A stretch of DNA of 64,000 nucleotides from a virus. Its lineage: Duplodnaviria; Heunggongvirae; Uroviricota; Caudoviricetes. Each line of letters opens with the position of its first letter. Position 1 is the first letter of the stretch. Below are positions 4,796 through 51,137 of this stretch, piece after piece. The stretch lies in IMG/VR virus record IMGVR_UViG_3300013126_000009; one strand, written 5' to 3'. The notes under the pieces are model-generated. The model had not been told where the DNA came from. It saw only the letters and a list, made by a program, of their open reading frames with translations, and made no database searches. A program made the translations under genes and the position numbers.

Positions 4796-7661
4796 AAATC
4801 CATATAATGAGGAAAAGGATGAGTTTGGTGTGATAAAAAGAACCTTTTATGAGACAACAGATTCAGATGAATTTGTTTGGCATAGGGATAAAAAAGACCG
4901 TTTGGTCACACCAGTTACTGAAACCGATTGGATGATTCAATTTGATAATGAATTACCAAGAAAAATGGTTATTGGTGAAGCGATTGAGATACCAAAAGAA
5001 TCATATCATAGGGTTATAAAAGGTTCTGGTGATTTAATTGTTGAAATCGAAGAGTTTGATTCAATAGATGAAGCTAAAAAGAAGAAAAGTTCTGGAAAAA
5101 AAGACGCATGTTATTACAAAGTTAAAAGTAGGTACTCGGTCTGGCCATCAGCCTACGGGTCAGGTGCCCTTGTTCAATGTAGAAAAGTTGGTGCGAAAAA
5201 TTGGGGTAATAAAACTAAAGAGGGTGTTGACGAAAATAAAACTGAGTTTCAAAATAAAGCTTTAGATAACATAAATAAATTGGGTGGTTTTGATAATTTA
5301 CCTGATATTGATAAATTAGCTTTATTGGGTGGTACAAACGATAATCGATTAAAGGATTTGAATTTGATTAAAATCTTTAAAGAGAATGGTGGTACTTTTG
5401 GTAAATTCGAGATAAAAGTTAAGGTTAAAGATGAAAATCAACAACCAATTAACCATAAATTCAGTAAAGAATTTGCTGGTAAAGAAGGTTATCTATATCC
5501 GTACATAAATTATACAGAAAATAATCAACCGTATGTTACAGTTAGGTTTGATGAATTTATTTCAAATCCAGATTATAAAGGTGGTGGCTCTTACGAAGAA
5601 AGACCAATTTTCTTAGCAAATATATACCCGATTGATTATGATGAAATCAAAAGTGATTTTGTGAAATATCAAAATAAAGTTGACCAAGACAGAAAAGATT
5701 TTTTAAACCAATTTGGTTTGGATGACATCTATGAAAGTGAATTAGAAGTTTATGAAGCTAAAAAAGAACTTTTTAAAGAAAATATTAAATCTAAATTAAT
5801 TCTGTTGAACGAGATAAGCTCTAATGATGCTTATACTAGATTTTATCGCAGTACTTTTGATGCTGAAAACCCTGATAGGGATAGAGCCATTTATACTAAA
5901 GTAATTCAATTAGACCCAACATTTAACGCCCAAAATGATAAATTAGGTATGTATACCAAATGGTTGTTTAGGAAAGATAATGTTGAGCAACTTAAAAAGA
6001 CCAAAGACGAAGATTTATATAAAATAAAGGGTGACTTGGAGTTTTTCCATAAAGCAAAGACAAAAAATATACTACCACCTGAAAGTAAGGATATTAATAA
6101 GTTTAATATTAAAACGCTTTTGGATTTGGTATTCGATATGGAGAAAAGTGGTGAAGACTTAATGTCAAAAACTGAGAAGGAAAAAGAAATAAAGGGTGAA
6201 GCTGATAAATATGAAACCGTTAATTGGATTATTATTGTACCAAAAACCGAAGAAGCCTCTTGTTTTTATGGTAAAGGTACTAGGTGGTGTACCGCAGCTG
6301 ATAATAACAATATGTTCAATAGCTATAGTTATGACGGACCGTTGTACATATTAATAAATAAACATGATAAATCTGATAAGTATCAGTTTCATTTCGAAAG
6401 TTCTCAGTTTATGGATACTAAAGATTCACCAATCAGTCTTTCAGAATTTATGTATGAGAATTCAGACGTATATGAGTTCTTTCAGTCTCGTGTTGGTGTT
6501 GATTTAGACTTTGAAATAGCCAAGTCATCTCTGGAAAACTATGATGAAGCTGGGTTTCAAGATTTTTATTCTGATGAATTTACCGATGAACAAAAAAGAG
6601 AATTGGTGAAACTAGCATTTGATAAAGATGAGTATTCAGACTCTTTCTATAATGTAAGTAATGTACTTAATTATGTGGATTATCCGAGTTTGAAGTCAGA
6701 TTTCAGGAATTCGTTTATTTGGGGTTTAGAAGTATCACTTGGTAATCGTTATGACGAGGAAAATTATGATGCTAGAATGTTCATTGATTATCTTGGTGGA
6801 TTTAATGATGAAAATATTTCTGTAATTGTAAATGCCGCTGACCTAAAAGACCCTGACCAAATTAATAAACTATTTGACATAGCCTCGGAATATGATGCTG
6901 AAAAATTATTAGCTGATTATTTAGAGGGCGAAGCTGTTGATATCAATTTTGATATGATTGACACACTAAATAATATTAAACAAAAATTTAATTATAGTGA
7001 TTGGGAAAAAACTGTAGAGTCTAAGTTGGTTAAAATTCGTATTAATTCAAGTGATTTGGAAAATGGTACCATTAACGTTACCATAACACCAAAAGATGAA
7101 AAAGGTAACGCAATTACCGACAAGAGTGAACGTGGTAATATAAATTATAAAAATTTAATTAAATATCTGACGATACCACAATTATTTAATGAAGCTAAAA
7201 AAACTGATTTTTCAAAAGAAAAGTCAAAGGGTCTTCATGGTTGGTTTGAAAGACAGGGTGGTAAAGGTAAATCCAAAGGTTGGGTTGATTGTAACACTTG
7301 TAGAAAGGATAAAAAGACTGGTAGAAAAAAGTGTAAACCTTGTGGTCGAAAAGAAGGTGAAAAAAGGTCTAAATATCCAGCATGTAGACCAACGCCTTCA
7401 GCCTGTGGAACCAGAGGTAAGGGTAAAAAGTGGGGTAAAAAGAGTGGTAAACAAAATGAAAATAGAGTACATTTGATAAAGAATATGTTAAACGAAAATT
7501 CAGAAATGTTAGATGTAGTAGAAGTTTTCTCTATTTATAATAAAGATAATAATCATACTGTTGAACCTGATGTTAAACCAGTTGAAAAACCAGTTGAAAG
7601 ACCAGATTCACCGTATGCACCAAAACAAAGACCTAAAACTAAACCAAAGGCTGAAAAATGA
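4785..7661 (+). CDS. multi-module putative head-cargo protein (cupin-like, Cys/Lys-rich and PcfJ-like modules)
   Basis: WHRD...YHRVIKG; DACYYKVKSRYSVWPSAY; ASCFYGKGTRWCTAA; WVDCNTC..CKPCG..PACRP; modules separated by [LIV]xE. Confidence 0.65.
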   Translation: MNSENPYNEEKDEFGVIKRTFYETTDSDEFVWHRDKKDRLVTPVTETDWMIQFDNELPRKMVIGEAIEIPKESYHRVIKGSGDLIVEIEEFDSIDEAKKKKSSGKKDACYYKVKSRYSVWPSAYGSGALVQCRKVGAKNWGNKTKEGVDENKTEFQNKALDNINKLGGFDNLPDIDKLALLGGTNDNRLKDLNLIKIFKENGGTFGKFEIKVKVKDENQQPINHKFSKEFAGKEGYLYPYINYTENNQPYVTVRFDEFISNPDYKGGGSYEERPIFLANIYPIDYDEIKSDFVKYQNKVDQDRKDFLNQFGLDDIYESELEVYEAKKELFKENIKSKLILLNEISSNDAYTRFYRSTFDAENPDRDRAIYTKVIQLDPTFNAQNDKLGMYTKWLFRKDNVEQLKKTKDEDLYKIKGDLEFFHKAKTKNILPPESKDINKFNIKTLLDLVFDMEKSGEDLMSKTEKEKEIKGEADKYETVNWIIIVPKTEEASCFYGKGTRWCTAADNNNMFNSYSYDGPLYILINKHDKSDKYQFHFESSQFMDTKDSPISLSEFMYENSDVYEFFQSRVGVDLDFEIAKSSLENYDEAGFQDFYSDEFTDEQKRELVKLAFDKDEYSDSFYNVSNVLNYVDYPSLKSDFRNSFIWGLEVSLGNRYDEENYDARMFIDYLGGFNDENISVIVNAADLKDPDQINKLFDIASEYDAEKLLADYLEGEAVDINFDMIDTLNNIKQKFNYSDWEKTVESKLVKIRINSSDLENGTINVTITPKDEKGNAITDKSERGNINYKNLIKYLTIPQLFNEAKKTDFSKEKSKGLHGWFERQGGKGKSKGWVDCNTCRKDKKTGRKKCKPCGRKEGEKRSKYPACRPTPSACGTRGKGKKWGKKSGKQNENRVHLIKNMLNENSEMLDVVEVFSIYNKDNNHTVEPDVKPVEKPVERPDSPYAPKQRPKTKPKAEK

Positions 7662-12182: not shown

Positions 12183-15100
12183 ATGGCAAATAATAAAACA
12201 ATATTTCAAACGCTTACCAATATGTTCGGACCTTATGGTGTCGAACCAGAAAGGGTCAGTAAAAAATATTCATTAGGTAATTCTGAATTATTAAGGACTA
12301 CCTCAAAAGAAGAGTATGAAACTCAGAAATTACAAGCAAGACAAAATAAGTATTTAAGTAATCAATGGGTTAAGGTTGAAAACGAGATATTTCAAAAATC
12401 AATTCAATATGAGATAACTAGAATAGGTGCATACTCCGATTTTGAAAATATGGAGTTTTACCCTGAAATTGCAGCAACTTTAGATATTCTTATGGAGGAA
12501 TCCACAACGGTTAACGATATTGGTAGGGTTTTAAATATATATTCTGAAAGTCCTAGAGTTAAGGGTATTTTGGAAGACCTTTTCTTCAATCGATTGGATG
12601 TTCATGTTTCTTTACCTATGTGGATAAGAAACATGTGTAAATATGGTGATAATTTCTTATATCTCAATACTGATGATAAGAGAGGTGTAACTGGTGTTAA
12701 ACAATTACCTAATTTTGAAATTGAGCGTAGAGAAGGTGGTATTTATGATGTTGTTAGTGCAAACTTAAATGGTGTTGAAAGGGGTAGTAATAAAGATGAT
12801 AAAGTAAAGTTTTTCTGGAGGGGTCGAGATTTAGAGTTTATGAATTGGCAAGTTGCACATTTTAGACTATTAGGTGATGACAGAAGATTACCATATGGCA
12901 CGTGTTTAAAAGGTGATACTAGAATTAATACCGAATTCGGTGTCGAGGAAATTAAGGACATTAAGGTCGGAACCAAAGTTTGGTCATTTAACACTAAAAC
13001 GCAAGAAAAAGAGTTGTCACCAATTTTAGATAAAATAATGTCTGGTACTAAAGAAGTATTTAAAATTTCAACAAGACATAATTTTATTGATGCTAGTAAA
13101 GAGCATAAAATTTTAGTTGCTACTGAATTTGGTGAATTTATCTATAAAAATGTTTGTGATTTAAAAATTGGGGATTTACTGGTATTAAATAAAAATGAGC
13201 ATACCAACAAAACGATATTAATTGATAAAAGTAACCCACTTGAAAATAAAAATGGGTGGTTTAATAACATTAATCACATACCAGATATTGTTACTGAAGA
13301 ATTTGCACAATTATTTGGTTTTTTAATTGGTGACGGTTGGTTAACGTCAAATAATTCTTGTGTTGAATTTGCTTTAGGTACTGACTCGGAAACCAATAAT
13401 TTTTATATTTCATTGTTAGAAAAGTTTTCTGGACATAAAGTTGTGGTGGGGGATAAACAAGTGACATTACGTTCTAAATTATTAAAAACTATTTTAGAAA
13501 GAATGGGGTTTTTTGGTAAATCCCATGAAAAAAGAATACCTAGTTGGGTGTTTGAAATGGGGGTTGATTTACAAAAAGCGTTTGTCGCTGGATTAATGGA
13601 CGCTGATGGTTGGGCAACTAAAGACCAATGGGTTATTGGGTTACATATTGAATTAAATAATAAACCATTAATTGAAGATTTAAAAATATTATTACAAAGA
13701 ATTGGTTACAAATCAGGCTCGATTAGAAGTCGAGTTAGGAAAGAGCCGATTATTGAGGGTAGGCAGATAAAAAATGTTAAAGAAAGCCACATAATCACAT
13801 TTTTTGATTCATATTTAACACAAATGAAAAAATATGAATTTAAAAATAGAAAAACTGATAATTTTATTTTAGAACCAATACAGAGTATTGAATCAATCGG
13901 TAATCATAATACATATGATATATATGTTGAGAACAGTAACCATAATTTTTATGCAAATAATGTTGTTGTACATAACTCAATCTTGGAAAAGGCTAGGCGT
14001 ATCTGGAAACAACTTCTTCTTTCAGAAGATGCGATGTTAGTGTATCGTGTTACTAGAGCACCAGAGAGACGTGTTTTTAAAGTTTATGTAGGTAACATTG
14101 ACGATGAAGATGTTCAACCATACGTTAATGAAATTGCTAATAGATTTAAACGTGCCAGTATAATTGACCCAAAAACAGGACAAATTGATTTGCGTTATAA
14201 CCAATTGGCAAATGACCAAGATTATTTTATTCCTGTTAGAGAAGAGGGTGCGGCAACACCTATTGATACTTTACCAGGCGCGTCAAATTTGTCAGATATC
14301 GCAGATATTGAGTACCTCCAGCGCAAATTATTTACGGCATTACGTGTACCAAAAGCCTTTTTGGGTTTTGACGAACCAAAAGGCGAGGGTAAGAATCTAG
14401 CGTTGTTAGATATTCGTTTTGCAAGAACAATAAATAGAATTCAACAAGCAGTTTTACAAGAACTTAATAAAATAGCTATTATACATTTAGTTTTATCTGG
14501 TTTAGAAGACGAAATAGATAATTTCACAATTACTATGAATAATCCGTCAACACAATCAGAGATGTTACGGATTCAAAATCTTCAAACAAAGGTTACTTTG
14601 GTTAAGGACGCTACTTCGGATATTGGTAATGGTTTCAGTGTAATGTCATTAACTAAAGCTAGAAGAAGTATTCTTGGTTGGAGTGATGAGGAATCTAAAC
14701 AGGATTTCCTTGAACAGCGTATGGAAAAAGCTGCTTCAGCTGAATTGGAAAACACGGCTAACGTAATTAAACACACTGGTATTTTTGATAAAGTTGATAA
14801 ACTTTATGGTGATATTGAAGTTGCAAAACAAGGTGGTGCAGCACCTGAAGGTGGCGATGAAGCTGGTGGTCCATCAGGTGGTGGTGGCGGTGGCTTCGGT
14901 GGTGGCGGCCTAGGTGGTGGTGACATCGACTTTGGTGCTGGTGATTTGGGCGAATTCGGTGAAGCTGAAGGTGAAACTCCTGAAGCTGGTGGTGAAACTC
15001 CTGAAGCTGGTGGTGAAATCCCTGAAGCTGGTGGTGAAACTCCTGAAGCTGGTGGTGAAACCCCTGAAGCTGGTGGTGGTGAAATTGCTGAAAACTTGGA

Positions 15101-15341
15101 TAAGATAAGTAATTTATTGACTGAGAGGGCTGAATTGTTGACCAATGACCTTAGAGCTAAGACTAAAAAATATCAAACAAATTATTATAATAGGTTGGTT
15201 GAATCTTTGGATACCAATAGTCTTGAACAAAAAATATTAAATAACAAGGTTAAGGTTTTTGATAAAGGTTTAAAACTAAATGAGGAAATTGATTCAGTTT
15301 TAAGGGAAATTGATAAACTTTCAACTGACAAAGGTGAATAA
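12183..15341 (+). CDS. portal protein (T4 gp20-like) with intein
   Basis: EDAMLVYRVTRAPERRVFKVYVGN, IDTLPG, DIEYLQRKLFTALRVP are gp20-family motifs. Confidence 0.95.
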   Translation: MANNKTIFQTLTNMFGPYGVEPERVSKKYSLGNSELLRTTSKEEYETQKLQARQNKYLSNQWVKVENEIFQKSIQYEITRIGAYSDFENMEFYPEIAATLDILMEESTTVNDIGRVLNIYSESPRVKGILEDLFFNRLDVHVSLPMWIRNMCKYGDNFLYLNTDDKRGVTGVKQLPNFEIERREGGIYDVVSANLNGVERGSNKDDKVKFFWRGRDLEFMNWQVAHFRLLGDDRRLPYGTCLKGDTRINTEFGVEEIKDIKVGTKVWSFNTKTQEKELSPILDKIMSGTKEVFKISTRHNFIDASKEHKILVATEFGEFIYKNVCDLKIGDLLVLNKNEHTNKTILIDKSNPLENKNGWFNNINHIPDIVTEEFAQLFGFLIGDGWLTSNNSCVEFALGTDSETNNFYISLLEKFSGHKVVVGDKQVTLRSKLLKTILERMGFFGKSHEKRIPSWVFEMGVDLQKAFVAGLMDADGWATKDQWVIGLHIELNNKPLIEDLKILLQRIGYKSGSIRSRVRKEPIIEGRQIKNVKESHIITFFDSYLTQMKKYEFKNRKTDNFILEPIQSIESIGNHNTYDIYVENSNHNFYANNVVVHNSILEKARRIWKQLLLSEDAMLVYRVTRAPERRVFKVYVGNIDDEDVQPYVNEIANRFKRASIIDPKTGQIDLRYNQLANDQDYFIPVREEGAATPIDTLPGASNLSDIADIEYLQRKLFTALRVPKAFLGFDEPKGEGKNLALLDIRFARTINRIQQAVLQELNKIAIIHLVLSGLEDEIDNFTITMNNPSTQSEMLRIQNLQTKVTLVKDATSDIGNGFSVMSLTKARRSILGWSDEESKQDFLEQRMEKAASAELENTANVIKHTGIFDKVDKLYGDIEVAKQGGAAPEGGDEAGGPSGGGGGGFGGGGLGGGDIDFGAGDLGEFGEAEGETPEAGGETPEAGGEIPEAGGETPEAGGETPEAGGGEIAENLDKISNLLTERAELLTNDLRAKTKKYQTNYYNRLVESLDTNSLEQKILNNKVKVFDKGLKLNEEIDSVLREIDKLSTDKGE
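12903..13976 (+). mobile_element. intein (358 aa) with LAGLIDADG homing endonuclease in portal
   Basis: starts CLKGDTRI; ends VVVHN followed by Ser; LIGDG and GLMDADG motifs. Confidence 0.95.
14961..15077 (+). repeat. 21-bp tandem repeat (~5.5 copies) encoding EAGGETP
   Basis: GAAGCTGGTGGTGAAACTCCT units in portal C-terminal tail. Confidence 0.95.
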
Positions 15342-17065: not shown

Positions 17066-17791
17066 ATGATAGGTATGTCAAATAAATATAATATTATCCA
17101 ACCTAATGTCTTAAGAGCCAATGAAACTGGATTTGGTTATCTGATTGAGCATGACGCTGGTTATATCTCACCAGAAGACAAAAGAAATTTACCATTCATC
17201 AATGAGATGAAAAAACTTGAGTCTGGTGACCGAGTTATAACTGAACCATATTATGTCTATGCCGTGTTACAAAAATATGGTGTGAAGAATCGTAATGGTC
17301 GTGTCTATCCTGAAGACATTTTAAAAAAACAAGTCACAGTATATCAAAAATTAGTTGATGAGCGAAGAGCCATAGGTGAATTGGACCATCCAGATTCCAC
17401 TGTAATTGCTGGTGATAGAGTATCACACAATATTGTTGAAATGTGGTGGGAAGGTAATGTGTTGATGGGTAAATTGGAAATTCTAATGACACCAGGTTTT
17501 ATTAACCTAGGAATTGCTTCAACTCTTGGTGACCATGTTGGTAATCTATTAAGACATAAAATTAAAATCGGTGTCTCATCAAGAGGTGTTGGTTCCGTTG
17601 AAGATGTGCATGGTGTACAATTGGTACAAAACGATTTTGAATTGGTATGTTGGGATGTTGTTACAAACCCTAGCACCCCTGGTTCATGGATTTTTCAAGA
17701 CATGAATAAGTCAAATGAATTCAAATCAGAAAAGATTAATGAGAATAAAAATAAAATAATTAAAGGTCTTGATGATTTCCTTTTGGGATAA
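17066..17791 (+). CDS. prohead core protease (T4 gp21-like)
   Basis: KNRNGRVYP, GELDHP, VSH, GVSSRGVGS, DVVTNPS. Confidence 0.95.
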   Translation: MIGMSNKYNIIQPNVLRANETGFGYLIEHDAGYISPEDKRNLPFINEMKKLESGDRVITEPYYVYAVLQKYGVKNRNGRVYPEDILKKQVTVYQKLVDERRAIGELDHPDSTVIAGDRVSHNIVEMWWEGNVLMGKLEILMTPGFINLGIASTLGDHVGNLLRHKIKIGVSSRGVGSVEDVHGVQLVQNDFELVCWDVVTNPSTPGSWIFQDMNKSNEFKSEKINENKNKIIKGLDDFLLG

Positions 17792-17847
17792 TTATCAGAT
17801 ATTTTAATACAAAATTAAACTTTGTTAAATTATAACATATTTATAAA

Positions 17848-18093
17848 CAACAGCGTTCTTTGTTAAATTAATAATAAACATAATCAGAGCCTACCTTAAC
17901 TGGATGTGCCAACCTGATTATTATAACAATATCGTTCGGAACAAACGATTACAGACGTGGAGCAAAAATAAGTCCATTATAATTATAATGGCATAAGCAA
18001 TGAAACGTTTAAAATTCTTAATTAGATATATTTAATTAAGAAGCCCATATACAATAAAATGTATATAGGTAGTTCACAAACAAGTGAATGTTG
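17848..18093 (+). ncRNA. candidate structured non-coding RNA (~250 nt)
   Basis: non-coding gap with ATATTTATA at 17837; closing stem CAGCGTTC/GAATGTTG and at least 6 internal stems. Confidence 0.5.
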
Positions 18094-18172
18094 CACATTT
18101 TTTGACTTTTCATAAAAGTGTGCATATTTATTTATAGGTAAAAATAAAATTTTATATCCAACTATTAAAAAA

Positions 18173-19429
18173 ATGGAAAAAAACAAAAAAACAATTGCAG
18201 ATGAAGCGCTAATGGACATTGAAGTCATTAAAGCAGCTTTAACAGAAAACGCAAAAGAAATACTTCGTTCTGTGACCAGAGAAGAAATTGATGATGTTAT
18301 TAAGGAATCTTTAAATGAAGAAGATTTCGAAGAAGAAGAGGTAGACGCTGAAATGTCTGATGAAATGCCTGACGATGAGGAAGGTGCTGAAGACATGGAG
18401 GATATCGATGCTGACTCTGAAGGTGAAGAAGATGAAGACGACATGGAAATCACTGACGTTGAAATCGAAGATGAGCCTGAGAGTGAAGAAGACTCAGAAG
18501 ATATGGGCGATATTGAAATGGATATCGATGATGTTGAAATGGGTGATGATAGCGAAGAAATCGATTTAACAGATGCTTCTGACGATATGGTAATTTCTGT
18601 TTACAAGGAATTATCAGGTGAGGATGAAATTGAAGTTGTTGGTGATGAGATTCACTTAAACGTTTCTGAACCAGGTGAGTATATCCTAAAACCAAAATCC
18701 GCTGGCATCGATATGGATGCTGATGTTGAAATGGATACCATAGCTATGGAAGAAGAGGAGATGGAAGAAGGGATGTACAACGAAGGTGAAGAAATGGATG
18801 AAGTTGTTTACGAAGTTTACATGGATGAAGAAGAAACTATGGAAGAATCTTACGAAATGGATGAAGAAGAAACAATGGAAGAAGGTGAAGAAGTTATGGA
18901 AGAAGAAGAAATGATTGATGAAAAAATCAGAGTAAACCATGTACAAGGTAAACAAGCTGGTAATGAACATCAACCAAAAGTTCTTGGAGCTAAAAACCTT
19001 AAAGAATCAAAGACTTCAGAATATGAAAAATTGTTGGCTGAAGCAAACAAACTTAAGAAAGAAAATGAATTGTTCAAGCAGAACCTTTCAACTTTCAGAA
19101 AGATGTTGGCTGAAACAGCAGTTTACAATTCAAACCTCACAAACGTAACAAGAATTTTCTTGGAGCATGCAACAACAAAATCTGAAAAGCAAGCAATTAT
19201 CAAGAGATTCGATGATGAAGTTAAGACAGTAAAAGAATCAAAAGCTCTTTATAAAAAGATTGTTGGTGAACTTGGTTCAAAACCATCTTTGACCGAGAGT
19301 GTAAGTAATGTTGATAAAAACATGACTTCAGGTTCTTCAAATCTTAATTCTCAAACTGCTTACGTAGATAATGAAACTTCTCGAATCAAAGAATTGATGG
19401 AGAGAGTTGAAGGTAGAAAGTTACTATAA
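18173..19429 (+). CDS. prohead scaffold/core protein
   Basis: extremely D/E-rich with coiled-coil C-terminus; between protease and major capsid protein. Confidence 0.8.
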   Translation: MEKNKKTIADEALMDIEVIKAALTENAKEILRSVTREEIDDVIKESLNEEDFEEEEVDAEMSDEMPDDEEGAEDMEDIDADSEGEEDEDDMEITDVEIEDEPESEEDSEDMGDIEMDIDDVEMGDDSEEIDLTDASDDMVISVYKELSGEDEIEVVGDEIHLNVSEPGEYILKPKSAGIDMDADVEMDTIAMEEEEMEEGMYNEGEEMDEVVYEVYMDEEETMEESYEMDEEETMEEGEEVMEEEEMIDEKIRVNHVQGKQAGNEHQPKVLGAKNLKESKTSEYEKLLAEANKLKKENELFKQNLSTFRKMLAETAVYNSNLTNVTRIFLEHATTKSEKQAIIKRFDDEVKTVKESKALYKKIVGELGSKPSLTESVSNVDKNMTSGSSNLNSQTAYVDNETSRIKELMERVEGRKLL

Positions 19430-19477: not shown

Positions 19478-21280
19478 ATGTCACACTTATTAAACTCTGG
19501 TTCAGTTGGAAATATCGGACTTAACCACATGAAAGAAGTAAGGAAAAAAGTACAAGAAAAGTGGGATTCTACAGGCTTCCTTACTGGTCTTCAAGGACAC
19601 ATTAAAGAAAACGTTGCTCAGTTATTCGAAAACCAAGCTGGTAGCTTGTTGACCGAAAACACTGATGCTACTTCTTCAGGTTCTTTTGAAACAGTAGTAT
19701 TCCCAATCGTAAGAAGAGTATTCTCTAAACTTCTTGCAAATGATATCGTATCAGTACAAGCAATGAACTTGCCAATCGGTAAATTGTTCTTCTTTGTACC
19801 TGTTACATCTTCTAGAGTAGACGCATCTGGTGCTGCTGGTGACCCTTATGGTTCTGTACCATATAACGGTTCTTACTCAGCACATACTGGAATGACTCAA
19901 CTACCTGATTGTGTGGTGAATGGTGCTTCTTGCCCATCTACTAGCTTTTTAGCTAAAAACCTTTATGATTTATTCTACAACGATGGTTTGTTTGATAACT
20001 CAAAGGGTACCTTAACTATTAAGTCATTTACTGGTGCTACTCAAGTTACTAAAGTCGCTTTGGGCGCTAACGGTGAGTTTAGTGTAATCGCTCCAGCGGC
20101 TACTTTAGCAACAGCAACTGATGGTTCTGTACGTGAAGTTATTTTACGTGTATCAGGATTTAGCTCAACAAATAAAGGTCGTTTAACTGGTCCAGATGGT
20201 AATACTATGGATACTGAGTCTTTCTTGGCCTCATTAATGGTATTTAACGCTGGTTCAGCAATACTTGACGCTAATGGTGATGAAATTATCCCGAATTTGG
20301 GTAAAGTACCATTTAGGGTTGTAACTCAAAAATACGGAAAGGGTATTGTTGAATATGATGACATCTGTGACAGTGCTGGTCACATCTATTTAGGTGCTGA
20401 CCTTACTCATCCAGTTGATATCAATGCTGCTACGACAACTTTCGATGGTTACATCGGTATGTCAGCCACAACTGCTAGTGCAACAACATTTGCTGTAGCA
20501 TGGGCTGAGTACGCAAGCCTTGAGTTCGAAACTGAAATGGGTGAAGTTTCTTTCAGACTTGACGATGTTGTTGTGTCTGTAGAAGAAAGAAAATTGAGAG
20601 CTACTTGGTCTCCAGAATTGGCACAAGATGTTAGTGCATTCCACAACATCGATGCTGAAGCTGAATTGACAGCGTTGCTTTCTGAGCAAATTGCATCTGA
20701 AATTGACCGTGAAATCCTTAGAGATTTGAGAAGTCTTGGTGCATGGCAAATGAGATGGGACTATTACGGATGGAGAAAAGCGTCTAGCGCATCTAACGCT
20801 TACACCCAGAAGGATTGGAACCAAACTTTGATTACCAAAGTTAACCAAATCTCAGCTCAAATCCATAAGTCAACACTTAGAGGTGGTGCTAACTTCATCG
20901 TAGTATCTTCAGAGATTTCTGCAATCTTCGATGACCTTGAGTACTTCCACGTAAGTGATGCTTCTCCAGAGCAAGACCAATACAACATGGGTATTGAAAG
21001 AATCGGTTCATTGGGAGGACGTTATCAAGTATACCGTGACCCATATGCACCAGCATACTCAATGATTATCGGTCACAAAGGAAAGTCATTGTTGGATACA
21101 GGTTACATCTACGCACCATACGTGCCAATGCAACTTACCCCAACTATGTACAATCCATTCAACTTCGCTCCAGTGAAGGGAATTATGACACGGTATGCGA
21201 AGAAAAGCGTGAATAACCGCTTCTACGGACATGTTCGTGTAGATGGTGTTCCAACATTCAACGTAGCTGAATTGAGATAA
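19478..21280 (+). CDS. major capsid protein (T4 gp23-like)
   Basis: IVSVQAMNLPIG, RKLRATWSPELAQD, DAEAELTALLSEQIASEIDREI, GYIYAPYVP, GIMTRY. Confidence 0.95.
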   Translation: MSHLLNSGSVGNIGLNHMKEVRKKVQEKWDSTGFLTGLQGHIKENVAQLFENQAGSLLTENTDATSSGSFETVVFPIVRRVFSKLLANDIVSVQAMNLPIGKLFFFVPVTSSRVDASGAAGDPYGSVPYNGSYSAHTGMTQLPDCVVNGASCPSTSFLAKNLYDLFYNDGLFDNSKGTLTIKSFTGATQVTKVALGANGEFSVIAPAATLATATDGSVREVILRVSGFSSTNKGRLTGPDGNTMDTESFLASLMVFNAGSAILDANGDEIIPNLGKVPFRVVTQKYGKGIVEYDDICDSAGHIYLGADLTHPVDINAATTTFDGYIGMSATTASATTFAVAWAEYASLEFETEMGEVSFRLDDVVVSVEERKLRATWSPELAQDVSAFHNIDAEAELTALLSEQIASEIDREILRDLRSLGAWQMRWDYYGWRKASSASNAYTQKDWNQTLITKVNQISAQIHKSTLRGGANFIVVSSEISAIFDDLEYFHVSDASPEQDQYNMGIERIGSLGGRYQVYRDPYAPAYSMIIGHKGKSLLDTGYIYAPYVPMQLTPTMYNPFNFAPVKGIMTRYAKKSVNNRFYGHVRVDGVPTFNVAELR

Positions 21281-21301: not shown

Positions 21302-21333
21302 AAAAGAGGGTCAAAATTGACCCTCTTTTTTTT
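21302..21333 (+). terminator. intrinsic terminator after major capsid gene
   Basis: AAAAGAGGGTCAA-AA-TTGACCCTCTTTT followed by T-tract. Confidence 0.9.
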
Positions 21334-39951: not shown

Positions 39952-41124
39952 TTATTTATTTAAAACTTTATTAATAATTTCACACACAAACGTAACTTCT
40001 TCTTCAGTCATTTCATGGTTGTTAGGTAAATATAATCCTTTATTATGTAACCAATCAGCATTTGGTGTTTTATAATTTTTAAATCGTTCATACCAGAATG
40101 GTTGTTGGTTTATTGACCCACAAATTAAAGGTCTACATTCAATATTATTCATTTCTAATTCACTAACCAATTCGTCAATTTTATCACTAATTATAGGATA
40201 AGCAAAATTAGATGTAAAGGAATTTTCTCTTGGTGAAATCTTCCATTCGTTATTATCAATTAGTTTATGATACAACTGATAATTTCTTTCCCTTATTTTA
40301 ACAATATCATCTATTTTATTCATTTGCTGAATACCTAAAAATGCTTGTAAATCGGTAGAACGTAAATTAAAACCTGGATGATAAAATGTATATAAAGCCC
40401 TAAAATCAGATACTTTATATTTTGTTCTTAATTCTTTTTTCTTATATTCTGGTAAGTCTCTGTCCCACCCATGACTTCGTATTGATAGTAATAAATGATA
40501 TAGTTCTTCATCATTAGTAGAAATCATCCCACCTTCTATTGTTGATATGTGATGACCAAAATAAAAAGAGAAGCTTCCCATATCACCAATAGAACCTAAT
40601 TTTTTACCATCATACATAGAACCTATCGACTCACACGTATCTTCAATGATAATAATATTGTTTTCCTCACATAATTTAACGATTTCATCCATATCATTTG
40701 AAAACCCTAACGCATGAACTAAAATTAAACTAGACGGTTTTTCTTTTTTAATGATTTGTTTTAGATTTTCAATATCTAAACCTAAATTATCTTTATTACA
40801 ATCACATAGGATTGGTTCTAACCCTAACTGAATTGCTGGTGATACTGTTGTTACCCAAGAAACTGCTGGTACAATAATTTTATTATTTTTCAATCGACCA
40901 GATAATATTAAAACGTAAATTGCAGCTAAATTAGCTGAAGAACCAGAGTTAACATAAACAGAATATTTTACATCTAACCATTCAGACCAAAGTTTTTCTA
41001 ATTCGATTGTTAATTCACCTTTAGTTAATCTAGGGTTGGTTTCTAACCAGCTAATTAATTTTTTAATATCGTCAAAATTTATAGTGTCTTTTACTAAACT
41101 TATTTTATCTCTTTTTGATATCAT
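39952..41124 (-). CDS. DegT-family enzyme, ColD-like GDP-4-keto-6-deoxymannose 3-dehydratase
   Basis: VNSGSSANL, EDTCES, SFYFGHHISTIEGG (His at the usual PLP Lys), RSHGW, GFNLR. Confidence 0.8.
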   Translation of the reverse strand: MISKRDKISLVKDTINFDDIKKLISWLETNPRLTKGELTIELEKLWSEWLDVKYSVYVNSGSSANLAAIYVLILSGRLKNNKIIVPAVSWVTTVSPAIQLGLEPILCDCNKDNLGLDIENLKQIIKKEKPSSLILVHALGFSNDMDEIVKLCEENNIIIIEDTCESIGSMYDGKKLGSIGDMGSFSFYFGHHISTIEGGMISTNDEELYHLLLSIRSHGWDRDLPEYKKKELRTKYKVSDFRALYTFYHPGFNLRSTDLQAFLGIQQMNKIDDIVKIRERNYQLYHKLIDNNEWKISPRENSFTSNFAYPIISDKIDELVSELEMNNIECRPLICGSINQQPFWYERFKNYKTPNADWLHNKGLYLPNNHEMTEEEVTFVCEIINKVLNK

Positions 41125-41878
41125 CTAATGTATCTTTAATTAAATCATTATATTTAATTTCGGTGTCTAACCAAAAACTATTATTTTTATGCGGTGAACT
41201 ATTTGTTTTATCTTCAATTACATAATCTTCATATTTTAACCCACTTAATGAATAAAGATTTTTAATAAAATCTTTTAAATTAATTAAAACACCAGAAGCG
41301 ATTATCATGTCTTTATCACATTTAAGTGATTCATTAGCCAAAAATTTGGTATGAATTAAATCTCGATTTATATCTAAATCCCCAACCGTTATTTTATGTT
41401 TATTTATTATAGAATCAAAAATCTTGCTAAATAAAAAACCTTCTTTTCTATTTGTTGAATTAAAGTTAGTTGGGTGTATCATGAAAACATTTGACCACTC
41501 ACCTTTAGTTCTTTTTTCTAATAATAGATAATATAATAATTCTTTAGATTTGATATATGGTGAATAATTATATTTTATTGGTGTTTTTAATGTTACGGGA
41601 CCATTATGGCCATTCCATAGTTCAAAAGTTCCATAAATTATTATTTTCTTATTAAACTTACATATGATATCTATTATTTCACTGGTGTATTTAACATTAA
41701 CATTAATAAAATCTTCTTCGGTTAAATTTTTATTAAACGTTCTTTGTTCTGCAAATGTAATATAAACAACATCATAACCTTTGATTTTTTCAACATCAAT
41801 ATTTCTAGAAGAGATTTTGACAAAATCTTCTGGGAAGAAGGTACCTAATTGTGATGTGTTACCAATTACTAAATTCAT
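41105..41878 (-). CDS. NAD-dependent epimerase/dehydratase-like protein
   Basis: IGNTSQLG, SPYIKSK, RDLIH. Confidence 0.65.
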   Translation of the reverse strand: MNLVIGNTSQLGTFFPEDFVKISSRNIDVEKIKGYDVVYITFAEQRTFNKNLTEEDFINVNVKYTSEIIDIICKFNKKIIIYGTFELWNGHNGPVTLKTPIKYNYSPYIKSKELLYYLLLEKRTKGEWSNVFMIHPTNFNSTNRKEGFLFSKIFDSIINKHKITVGDLDINRDLIHTKFLANESLKCDKDMIIASGVLINLKDFIKNLYSLSGLKYEDYVIEDKTNSSPHKNNSFWLDTEIKYNDLIKDTLDDIKKR

Positions 41879-42237
41879 TACGTTTGAAAACCTTTATATA
41901 ATTTAACTGAATCTTCAACTAAACGTTTTTCAGTTAAAATAGCGTTATCAATCAACCTATTAACAGCTTCAACGTATTTAGGTCTTTTTTGTTTAAAACA
42001 AACATCAATTTTACGTTTTAATTCAGCAACTTCCTCATCAGATTTAGCTTCTGAAATCGCATCCTCTAAATACCACATACGGCAGTGTAAAATGGCTAAT
42101 TTTTCTATAATTTCTCCGATATTGTCGGTTTCAATTAAATCATTGGGTAATTCGACATTTTTATTTTTGTTTAAAACTTCATGCACAGTATTTTTTATAA
42201 CTGCTTCAATACTGTTTCCAATATGTTTGTTTTCCAT
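41878..42237 (-). CDS. DUF4254-like helical protein
   Basis: GEIIEKLAIL..MWYLED..KRKID...KR. Confidence 0.5.
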   Translation of the reverse strand: MENKHIGNSIEAVIKNTVHEVLNKNKNVELPNDLIETDNIGEIIEKLAILHCRMWYLEDAISEAKSDEEVAELKRKIDVCFKQKRPKYVEAVNRLIDNAILTEKRLVEDSVKLYKGFQT

Positions 42238-50513: not shown

Positions 50514-51137
50514 TTATTTAATACCAGTGCTACCAAACCCACCAGAACCACGTTCAGTGTCTGATAGTTCACTAACACTTTCAAATGTTATCATTTTTTT
50601 ACCCATTACACCACCAATAACACCTTGAGCAATTCGCTCACCATTTTCAATAACGAATGGTTTTGTTCCATGATTAATTAAAATAACTCTGACCTCGCCA
50701 CGGTAATCGCTGTCCACTGTACCTGGCGAATTTAATACCGTAACACCATGTTTAGCCGCCAAACCACTTCTTGGTCTAACTTGTAATTCAAACCCTTCTG
50801 GTATCTCAAAATATAAACCTGTTGGTACCATTGCATATTCACCAACACCCAATGTCATTGATTCGTCAAGTGGTAAGTCAGCTCTTAAATCAAATCCAGA
50901 AGCACCATCAGTTGCAAATTCAGGGTCTGGGTTTGTACTCTTATTTACTAATCTTACTTTAGTTTTTGGCGTTGGGAATAACTTAGCTTTATCCTTTAAC
51001 CATTTATCAAAATCAAATGGTTCTTGCTCATATTTCTTAATTAACTCATCAAAATTAAGTTTGGTCTTATAATCATCAATTTGCTGTTTATATTCAGCAA
51101 CTTTTTTATCCAAATCTTCACCCATTTCTTTAAACAT
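50514..51137 (-). CDS. dut: trimeric dUTPase with N-terminal helical extension
   Basis: [38 protein letters not shown]. Confidence 0.95.

Follow-up and report, generated by a model that had tools for sequence, protein, structure and literature searches.

What fills the widest intergenic gap in this stretch of phage DNA, and does it belong to the head genes among which it lies? The window, by which we mean the whole 64,000-nucleotide stretch analysed here, has 31.7% GC and comes from a distant T4-like myovirus whose capsid protein finds its nearest cultured relative in Flavobacterium phage immuto (39% identity). Besides the two genes that border the gap, it encodes a gp20-like portal protein with an intein and a Gp23-type major capsid protein. 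The portal gene (12183–15341) specifies 1052 aa, and its intein carries a LAGLIDADG domain (Pfam Intein_splicing and LAGLIDADG_3). The major capsid protein (19478–21280) is 600 aa long; its best-scoring Gp23 stretch starts only from about residue 312, and it therefore has a long N-terminal or inserted region. On the 3′ side of the capsid gene lies a perfect 12-bp GC-containing hairpin between A and T runs (21302–21329), which looks like a bidirectional terminator.

The gap between the protease and scaffold genes measures 381 nt (17792–18172) and, as the earlier note had observed, is the largest between open reading frames in the window, the next being 273 and 196 nt. That note, made from the sequence alone, had proposed that the gap holds a novel structured late RNA of the head-assembly module. 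The native features of the region are these:

17066–17791, + strand: prohead protease gene (gp21-like), the upstream neighbour (Pfam Peptidase_S77, E 4e-25).
17836–17844, + strand: P1, native late-type motif CATATTTAT, kept in all relatives.
18092–18124, + strand: native hairpin TGCACATTTTT...AAAAGTGTGCA, with a U-rich run after it; outside the insert described below and present in insert-free relatives.
18123–18131, + strand: P2, a further native copy of the late-type motif CATATTTAT; serves the scaffold gene as its proximal promoter.
18173–19429, + strand: scaffold gene (gp22-like, acidic), the downstream neighbour; assigned by its acidic repeats and by its place, after the protease gene and before that of the Gp23 major capsid protein, with no Pfam match.

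Both late-type motifs had been recognised previously, at 17837 and 18124; the actual positions, 17836 and 18123, differ by 1 nt. The motif acts like a promoter, since seven of the eight exact copies of CATATTTAT in the window directly precede same-strand gene starts, at distances of 7–41 nt. P2 is intact, 41 nt upstream of the scaffold ATG.

A search with the protease as a handle yielded 40 viral loci and 58 metagenomic ones. In all relatives whose scaffold gene is comparable (about 30 phages), the gap measures 97–147 nt and holds both late-type motifs, ∼55 nt apart. The larger gaps of distant relatives contain real small genes unrelated to the insert. The 10 closest relatives are 79–90% identical to the window in the flanks of the insert; in blastn comparisons with them, the alignment stops at 17850 and picks up again at 18078, the two parts overlapping by 5 nt in the subject, and their empty site reads TATTTAT-WAACAARTKAATGTTG. 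Because the relatives have an empty site and the alignment is broken, the window carries a private 233-nt insertion, which is absent from the syntenic site in all protease-retrieved relatives, with about 30 head modules among them. The gap is made of two layers, a short native one common to relatives and the extra 233 nt private to the window. The insertion into this phage lineage is recent.

One stem of the gap belongs to the native layer. The TGCACA/TGTGCA pairing reported in the earlier note is supported by covariation, but as a separate native element found in relatives that lack the insert. In the closest clade this hairpin (18092–18124) has 11 pairs, 96.6% paired, two of them compensatory (C-G to U-A and A-U to G-C). 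It could serve the protease operon as terminator, or be an operator or other regulatory hairpin. Its 3′ arm overlaps P2, and it stands between two tandem late-type motifs.

In line with the proposal of a structured RNA, the gap folds better than its dinucleotide shuffles (z −4.6 on the + strand and −5.2 on the − strand), as does the insert alone (z −3.7 as + strand RNA, −3.0 as − strand RNA and −3.2 as DNA). Among GC-matched 232-nt windows of the same genome, the minimum free energy (MFE) of the insert falls at the 8th (+) and 3rd (−) percentile, and MFE alone could not settle the matter because the insert is only modestly unusual against this background. Perfect hairpins are nevertheless packed more densely at this locus than anywhere else in the 64 kb, with four in 232 nt, a count unique to this place. 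The insert has no protein-coding gene, its ORFs (≤41 aa) being chance only, and a small protein gene was rejected as a candidate. The judgement that the RNA is not a tRNA, tmRNA or intron was borne out: ARAGORN found no tRNA or tmRNA, and Rfam 15 (4227 families) gave no match at gathering threshold for the window or the full-length copies introduced below, with chance matches only up to E 10. BLAST against a phage collection returned nothing for the 2.5-kb region and only chance matches for the insert.

Homologues of the insert lie in other phages. A 24-mer from it matches two IMG/VR contigs, L099 and L100, which align with the window at 86% identity along 214 nt. There the neighbours are a Mom-like/zinc-finger gene on one side and a gp19-like gene on the other, and the similarity stops exactly at the right border of the window insertion. 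An 18-mer from the shared core matches 37 IMG/VR viral stretches, far above chance. The family copies share a ∼150-nt core that ends in an invariant GTAGTTCA; similarity ceases 1–2 nt past GTAGTTCA, and the flanks differ between copies. Full-length copies carry a 390-aa ORF with the Pfam domains HTH_OrfB_IS605, OrfB_IS605 and Cas12f1-like_TNB, and an internal ATATTTAT motif 35–40 nt before this gene, tnpB. The encoded protein is a close homologue of ISDra2 TnpB (Karvelis 2021, PMC8612924; PDB 8BF8, 8EXA, 8H1J), with E 2.9e-86 against structures 8BF8 and 8H1J.

In these full-length copies the conserved RNA extends from within the final ∼40 tnpB codons to GTAGTTCA. The overlap with the tnpB 3′ end is seen in L124, L129, L112, L113, L131 and L121 but not in the window, which has no tnpB. 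The match to tnpB 3′ ends is unlikely to reflect mere shared coding, since the core lies mostly after the stop codon and covaries. The same RNA also occurs after unrelated genes (ribonucleotide reductase (RNR), nucleotidyltransferase-like and Mom-like). A precedent exists in ISDra2, where the TnpB guide RNA of ∼150 nt matches the tnpB 3′ end and the transposon right end and then runs into a ∼16-nt guide from the flank (PMC8612924). The family resembles ISDra2 in each of these respects, its RNA overlapping the tnpB 3′ end, reaching the right end and being followed by a flank-derived guide, and in having a transposon-adjacent motif (TAM) identical to the insertion target. It differs in the TAM itself, (TA)TTTAT rather than TTGAT, and the window copy differs further in having lost tnpB and in having a stem-loop, H1, in place of the 5′ part. 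It is very probable that the 233-nt insert is a tnpB-less mini-element from an ISDra2-like IS200/IS605 transposon that retains a complete omega-RNA (reRNA) scaffold and the right end. Its parts are as follows:

17845–18077, + strand: mini-element without tnpB, 233 nt, from AAACAACAGCG to GGTAGTTCAC; delimited by blastn breakpoints, empty sites and family boundaries.
17845–17850 (left) and 18078–18083 (right), + strand: AAACAA, 6-nt direct repeat.
17880–17921, + strand: H1, 5′ stem-loop ATAATCAG...CTGATTAT, specific to the tnpB-less sub-lineage.
17923–18082, + strand: core omega-RNA scaffold, full-length covariance-model match.
17931–17949, + strand: helix 1, ATCGTTCG-GAA-CAAACGAT; 8 pairs, 2 compensatory.
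17954–18009, + strand: helix 2, GACGU (17954–17958) with ACGUU (18005–18009); 100% paired, enclosing helix 3 and a variable hairpin.
17962–17963 with 17997–17998, + strand: helix 3, GC with GC, inside helix 2.
17974–17991, + strand: variable hairpin CCATTATAATTATAATGG, inside helix 2; 3 compensatory pairs.
18015–18042, + strand: variable hairpin TTCTTAATTA/TAATTAAGAA; 4 of 4 modelled pairs compensatory across the family.
18044–18069, + strand: right-end subterminal hairpin CCCATATACA...TGTATATAGG; 6 of its pairs are compensatory across the family.
18069–18077, + strand: right-end terminus GTAGTTCAC, in which GTAGTTCA is invariant.
18078–18097, + strand: predicted guide segment AAACAAGTGAATGTTGCACA, native flank, placed by analogy with TnpB biology.

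The fold was derived from an alignment of 24 distinct copies as the consensus plus one helix added by eye. It comprises 38 pairs that are 97.0% paired, compared with 19–44% when the partners are slid by 1–3 columns, and 16 of the 38 pairs show compensatory changes; none of 500 column shuffles reached the observed values. A covariance model (R2) built from 22 copies, leaving out the window, L099 and L100, matches the window at 17923–18082 on the + strand with 94.7 bits (E 1e-18) over its full length (model positions 1–145) and has no other significant match there. Of the 38 consensus pairs, four are left unpaired in the window copy and the other 34 form; all 45 family-invariant columns are kept. 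Helix 2 shows GU pairs in 6 and UG pairs in 10 of the 24 sequences, which agrees with the earlier suggestion that G-U pairing favours the + strand, to which such pairs are specific; in L143 and L144 the helix reads GAAGU/ACUUC, a compensatory change. At pair 41-80, 20 sequences have AU and 4 have CG.

All stems listed in the earlier note exist in the sequence. Family covariation supports ATCGTT/AACGAT, AGACGT/ACGTTT, the CCA...TGG palindrome, TTCTTAATTA/TAATTAAGAA, ATATACA/TGTATAT and ATAATCAG/CTGATTAT. The TTGTTA/TAACAA stem is not conserved; neither is the closing stem CAGCGTTC/GAATGTTG, which pairs the insert with native flank, and the multibranch closing is not real. A promoter in the loop of hairpin 18015–18042 was considered and dropped, the late-like loop motif being conserved neither in L100 nor in the family.

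The boundaries of the element follow from the family. The left end adjoins TTTAT in 14 contexts, in 10 of which the motif is extended to TATTTAT, the window among them (17838–17844, the last 7 nt of P1, with the insert starting directly 3′ of it). TTTAT is the documented TnpB TAM of ISGst2 (10.1101/2023.03.14.532601). Besides being the target and TAM of the family, (TA)TTTAT forms the core of the late-type promoter motif in these phages. Because the left ends abut the TAM and similarity stops after GTAGTTCA, the element is placed at 17845–18077, and the right boundary at 18077 is consistent with the empty sites of the relatives. At 15 of the 25 distinct loci the right end is followed 4–95 nt later by the start of a gene, and the family accordingly tends to insert between a promoter-like TATTTAT and its gene.

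Copies without tnpB occur in two forms. Six contigs (L102, L103, L106, L108, L116 and L122) hold tnpB-less mini-elements of ∼260 nt with a canonical left-end hairpin and the omega-RNA. These lie directly after TATTTAT, with a gene starting 4–21 nt further on; one example follows a ribonucleotide reductase gene that carries an intein. Several of the contigs hold two copies. The canonical left-end hairpin, which is present also in L113, resembles the right-end hairpin of the same elements. The window element lacks such a hairpin (of the CCCATCGG-TCTTTAG-CCGATGGG type), and its H1 is unlike its own right-end hairpin; mobilisation by a Y1 TnpA is doubtful on this account.

H1 is common to the window, L100, L101, L111, L143 and L144, a tnpB-less sub-lineage in which the left end has been replaced. 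Within it, the outer stem changes from TCAG/CTGA to TCAT/ATGA and an inner pair from C-G to U-A, and such structure-preserving changes argue that the RNA is still constrained. Where the window has A-T as the closing pair of hairpin 18015–18042, L100 has G-C, and another hairpin stands there in place of the right-end hairpin 18044–18069. The H1 loop CUACCU (17873–17900) is complementary to GGGUAG (18066–18071) of the invariant 3′ end, and RNAalifold proposes a pseudoknot. None of these positions varies among the six H1-type copies, and tnpB-linked copies lack the motif; a long-range CUACCU/GGGUAG contact is possible on this modelling.

In three H1-type copies, a short direct repeat occurs once after the TAM and again after the right end. 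The window has AAACAA, L100 the 8-nt ATACAAAG (2308–2315 and 2593–2600) and L111 the 5-nt TAACA. The window element is inserted directly 3′ of its target TATTTAT, yet has AAACAA at both borders. IS200/IS605 transposition produces no target duplication (PMC8612924) and would not be expected to leave such repeats. They are confined to the H1-type copies, the 5′ extents of which differ, unlike what peel-and-paste transposition would give. A classical MITE was rejected on inspection, no terminal inverted repeats being present in any register of the ambiguous 6-nt junction. Two other candidates, a decayed homing-endonuclease cassette and a PeSL-like cassette (repeated early-promoter stem-loop units of T4-type phages), were superseded by the TnpB match.

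The window itself contains no tnpB, as judged from a search of its six-frame translation with a seven-sequence TnpB profile (hmmsearch --max); tblastn finds only a 16-aa relic of the TnpB C-terminus, at 17929–17976 within the insert. Neither blastn nor the covariance model detects a second copy of the insert in the window. There is no TnpB look-alike in the indexed windows of the same genome, an index that may not span the whole genome. Since the 64 kb hold no tnpB, the RNA would be usable only with a matching TnpB supplied in trans, from elsewhere in a probably jumbo-sized genome or from a co-infecting phage.

TnpB genes are carried by relatives. G002, the contig of L011, is a complete jumbo-sized relative of 287,855 bp with direct terminal repeats and two TnpB homologues: a TnpB with its omega-RNA at 72751–73881 and a second, distant TnpB-like gene at 40926–41930. 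The former TnpB is 52% identical to the L124 type. A second model match in G002, at 50944–51038, was rejected as an element and is only an isolated right-end-hairpin scar. Two TnpB lineages coexist in one phage, since contig L130 holds a second TnpB (6312–7500; 54% identical) with its own divergent omega-RNA (model R1, 37.7 bits). Exact 20–25-mers from the H1 loop region have no match in viral, metagenome or genome collections, and the palindrome 21-mer found none in an exact-word search. With a core 20-mer likewise unmatched in GTDB genomes, there is no sign of a bacterial source.

The best explanation overall, and one that we consider likely, is an orphan omega-RNA mini-element predicted to use TnpB in trans. 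Because the element sits right after TATTTAT, the core of P1, transcription from P1 is expected, and would run through the element on the + strand. The predicted transcript consists of H1, the ∼150-nt scaffold (17923–18077) and the native-flank guide AAACAAGTGAATGTTG; it may end at the native hairpin (18092–18124) or read through into the scaffold gene, which keeps P2. The last ∼16 nt of a reRNA are a flank-derived guide (PMC8612924), and the guide 16-mer has one exact match in the window. In 10 relatives, the combined TAM and guide target shows 1–2 mismatches over 20 nt, some adjoining the TAM. Loaded with such a guide, the complex would be predicted to cut element-free alleles (TATTTAT followed by a guide match) in relatives. 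The occupied site would resist cutting because its right end, GTTCAC, is not TAM-like. Repair from this genome could then copy the element together with the linked head genes into the cut alleles, a form of RNA-guided homing. Present-day activity with TnpB in trans is conceivable, though we rate it somewhat below an even prospect.

Protein-less IS200/IS605 elements of this kind are already known, and the window element adds a phage example. The PATE-like elements of Geobacillus stearothermophilus keep an omega-RNA and no protein gene and need TnpB in trans (Meers et al., 10.1101/2023.03.14.532601), and the window element would likewise depend on TnpB, and on TnpA, in trans; TnpB2 of ISGst2, from the same species, recognises the same TAM core, TTTAT, as the present family. 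The window element differs in its host, a large T4-like phage rather than a bacterial chromosome, in lacking a matching left-end hairpin while having a 6-nt flanking repeat, and in that its TAM doubles as a late-promoter core. A second comparison is with the free-standing homing endonuclease genes of T-even phages, seg and mob (PMC13565253), which are likewise selfish intergenic inserts between conserved genes. Like them, the window element would be expected to bring about cutting of the allele that lacks it in a co-infecting relative, and to be copied in along with flanking markers; unlike them, it would recognise its target through a guide RNA and does not itself encode the nuclease. The likeness is one of function, an analogy and not homology.

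The main rival to the orphan mini-element starts from the same IS200/IS605 right-end origin and holds that the insert is now an inert relic, co-transcribed from P1 as an extra 5′ leader; to our minds this falls just short of an even call. It would account for the missing tnpB in the 64 kb and the missing canonical left end, for the single copy in the window and for the four of 38 pairs left unpaired. The insert is absent from all relatives, hence dispensable, and could be tolerated with the scaffold gene still served by P2; a relative also shows decayed scars of such ends. An inert sequence is, however, harder to reconcile with the structure-preserving differences that separate the window from L100 and recur across the H1 lineage, with the retention of all 45 invariant columns and the full-length model match, and with the TnpB genes carried by relatives of this phage group.

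It is also conceivable, though improbable, that the insert acts in cis as a leader that tunes scaffold expression from P1 through attenuation or mRNA stability. The 233 nt of stable hairpins between P1 and the scaffold gene, followed by the native hairpin and its U-run, would suit such a role. However, P2 remains intact 41 nt before the ATG, relatives manage without the insert, and no + strand terminator-like site is predicted inside it.

An independent late RNA of the head module, acting in assembly, packaging or regulation as the earlier note had supposed, is very unlikely. Part of that proposal stands: the RNA is structured, lies on the + strand directly downstream of a late-type motif within the head gene block, and folds better than shuffles. 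Its place in the head module does not, the insert being absent from every one of the about 30 related head modules, even those with 79–90% flank identity; nor is the RNA a new class, for it occurs behind unrelated genes and belongs to a family at tnpB 3′ ends in other phage contigs. Least probable of all is a DNA-level replication origin or packaging site made of palindromes, for although both strands fold and perfect palindromes cluster here, the insert is lineage-specific and so not an essential cis site, its G-U covariation is specific to the + strand, and only the right-end hairpin is plausible as single-stranded DNA for a transposase, a role that is itself part of the orphan mini-element reading.

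A bolder extension of the orphan mini-element concerns the H1 lineage as a whole. We regard it as unlikely, if worth stating, that H1-type RNAs are self-standing, nuclease-free guide-RNA genes of large phages, selected for structure, that borrow TnpB and thereby drive themselves and adjacent head genes into insert-free competitors. Here their own 5′ stem-loop would replace the transposon left end, late transcription would start from the TAM-bearing promoter core, and TnpB would be borrowed from another element or a co-infecting phage, making the RNA a “parasite of a parasite” in phage-phage competition. Spread would occur by guide-side-primed copy-in repair rather than by TnpA transposition, as the short flanking repeats and variable 5′ ends could indicate.

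What first appeared to be a new head-module RNA is thus resolved into a known system. The RNA lineage has no Rfam model, even for its tnpB-linked copies, and the present result supplies a covariation-backed model for a phage TnpB guide-RNA lineage outside Rfam 15. With a late-promoter core as the target, insertions fall between promoters and their genes and are likely to be transcribed late. A sub-lineage that has neither tnpB nor the canonical left end still evolves in a way that preserves structure. Should the orphan guide prove functional with a TnpB supplied in trans, the T-even homing genes seg and mob would have an RNA-guided counterpart.
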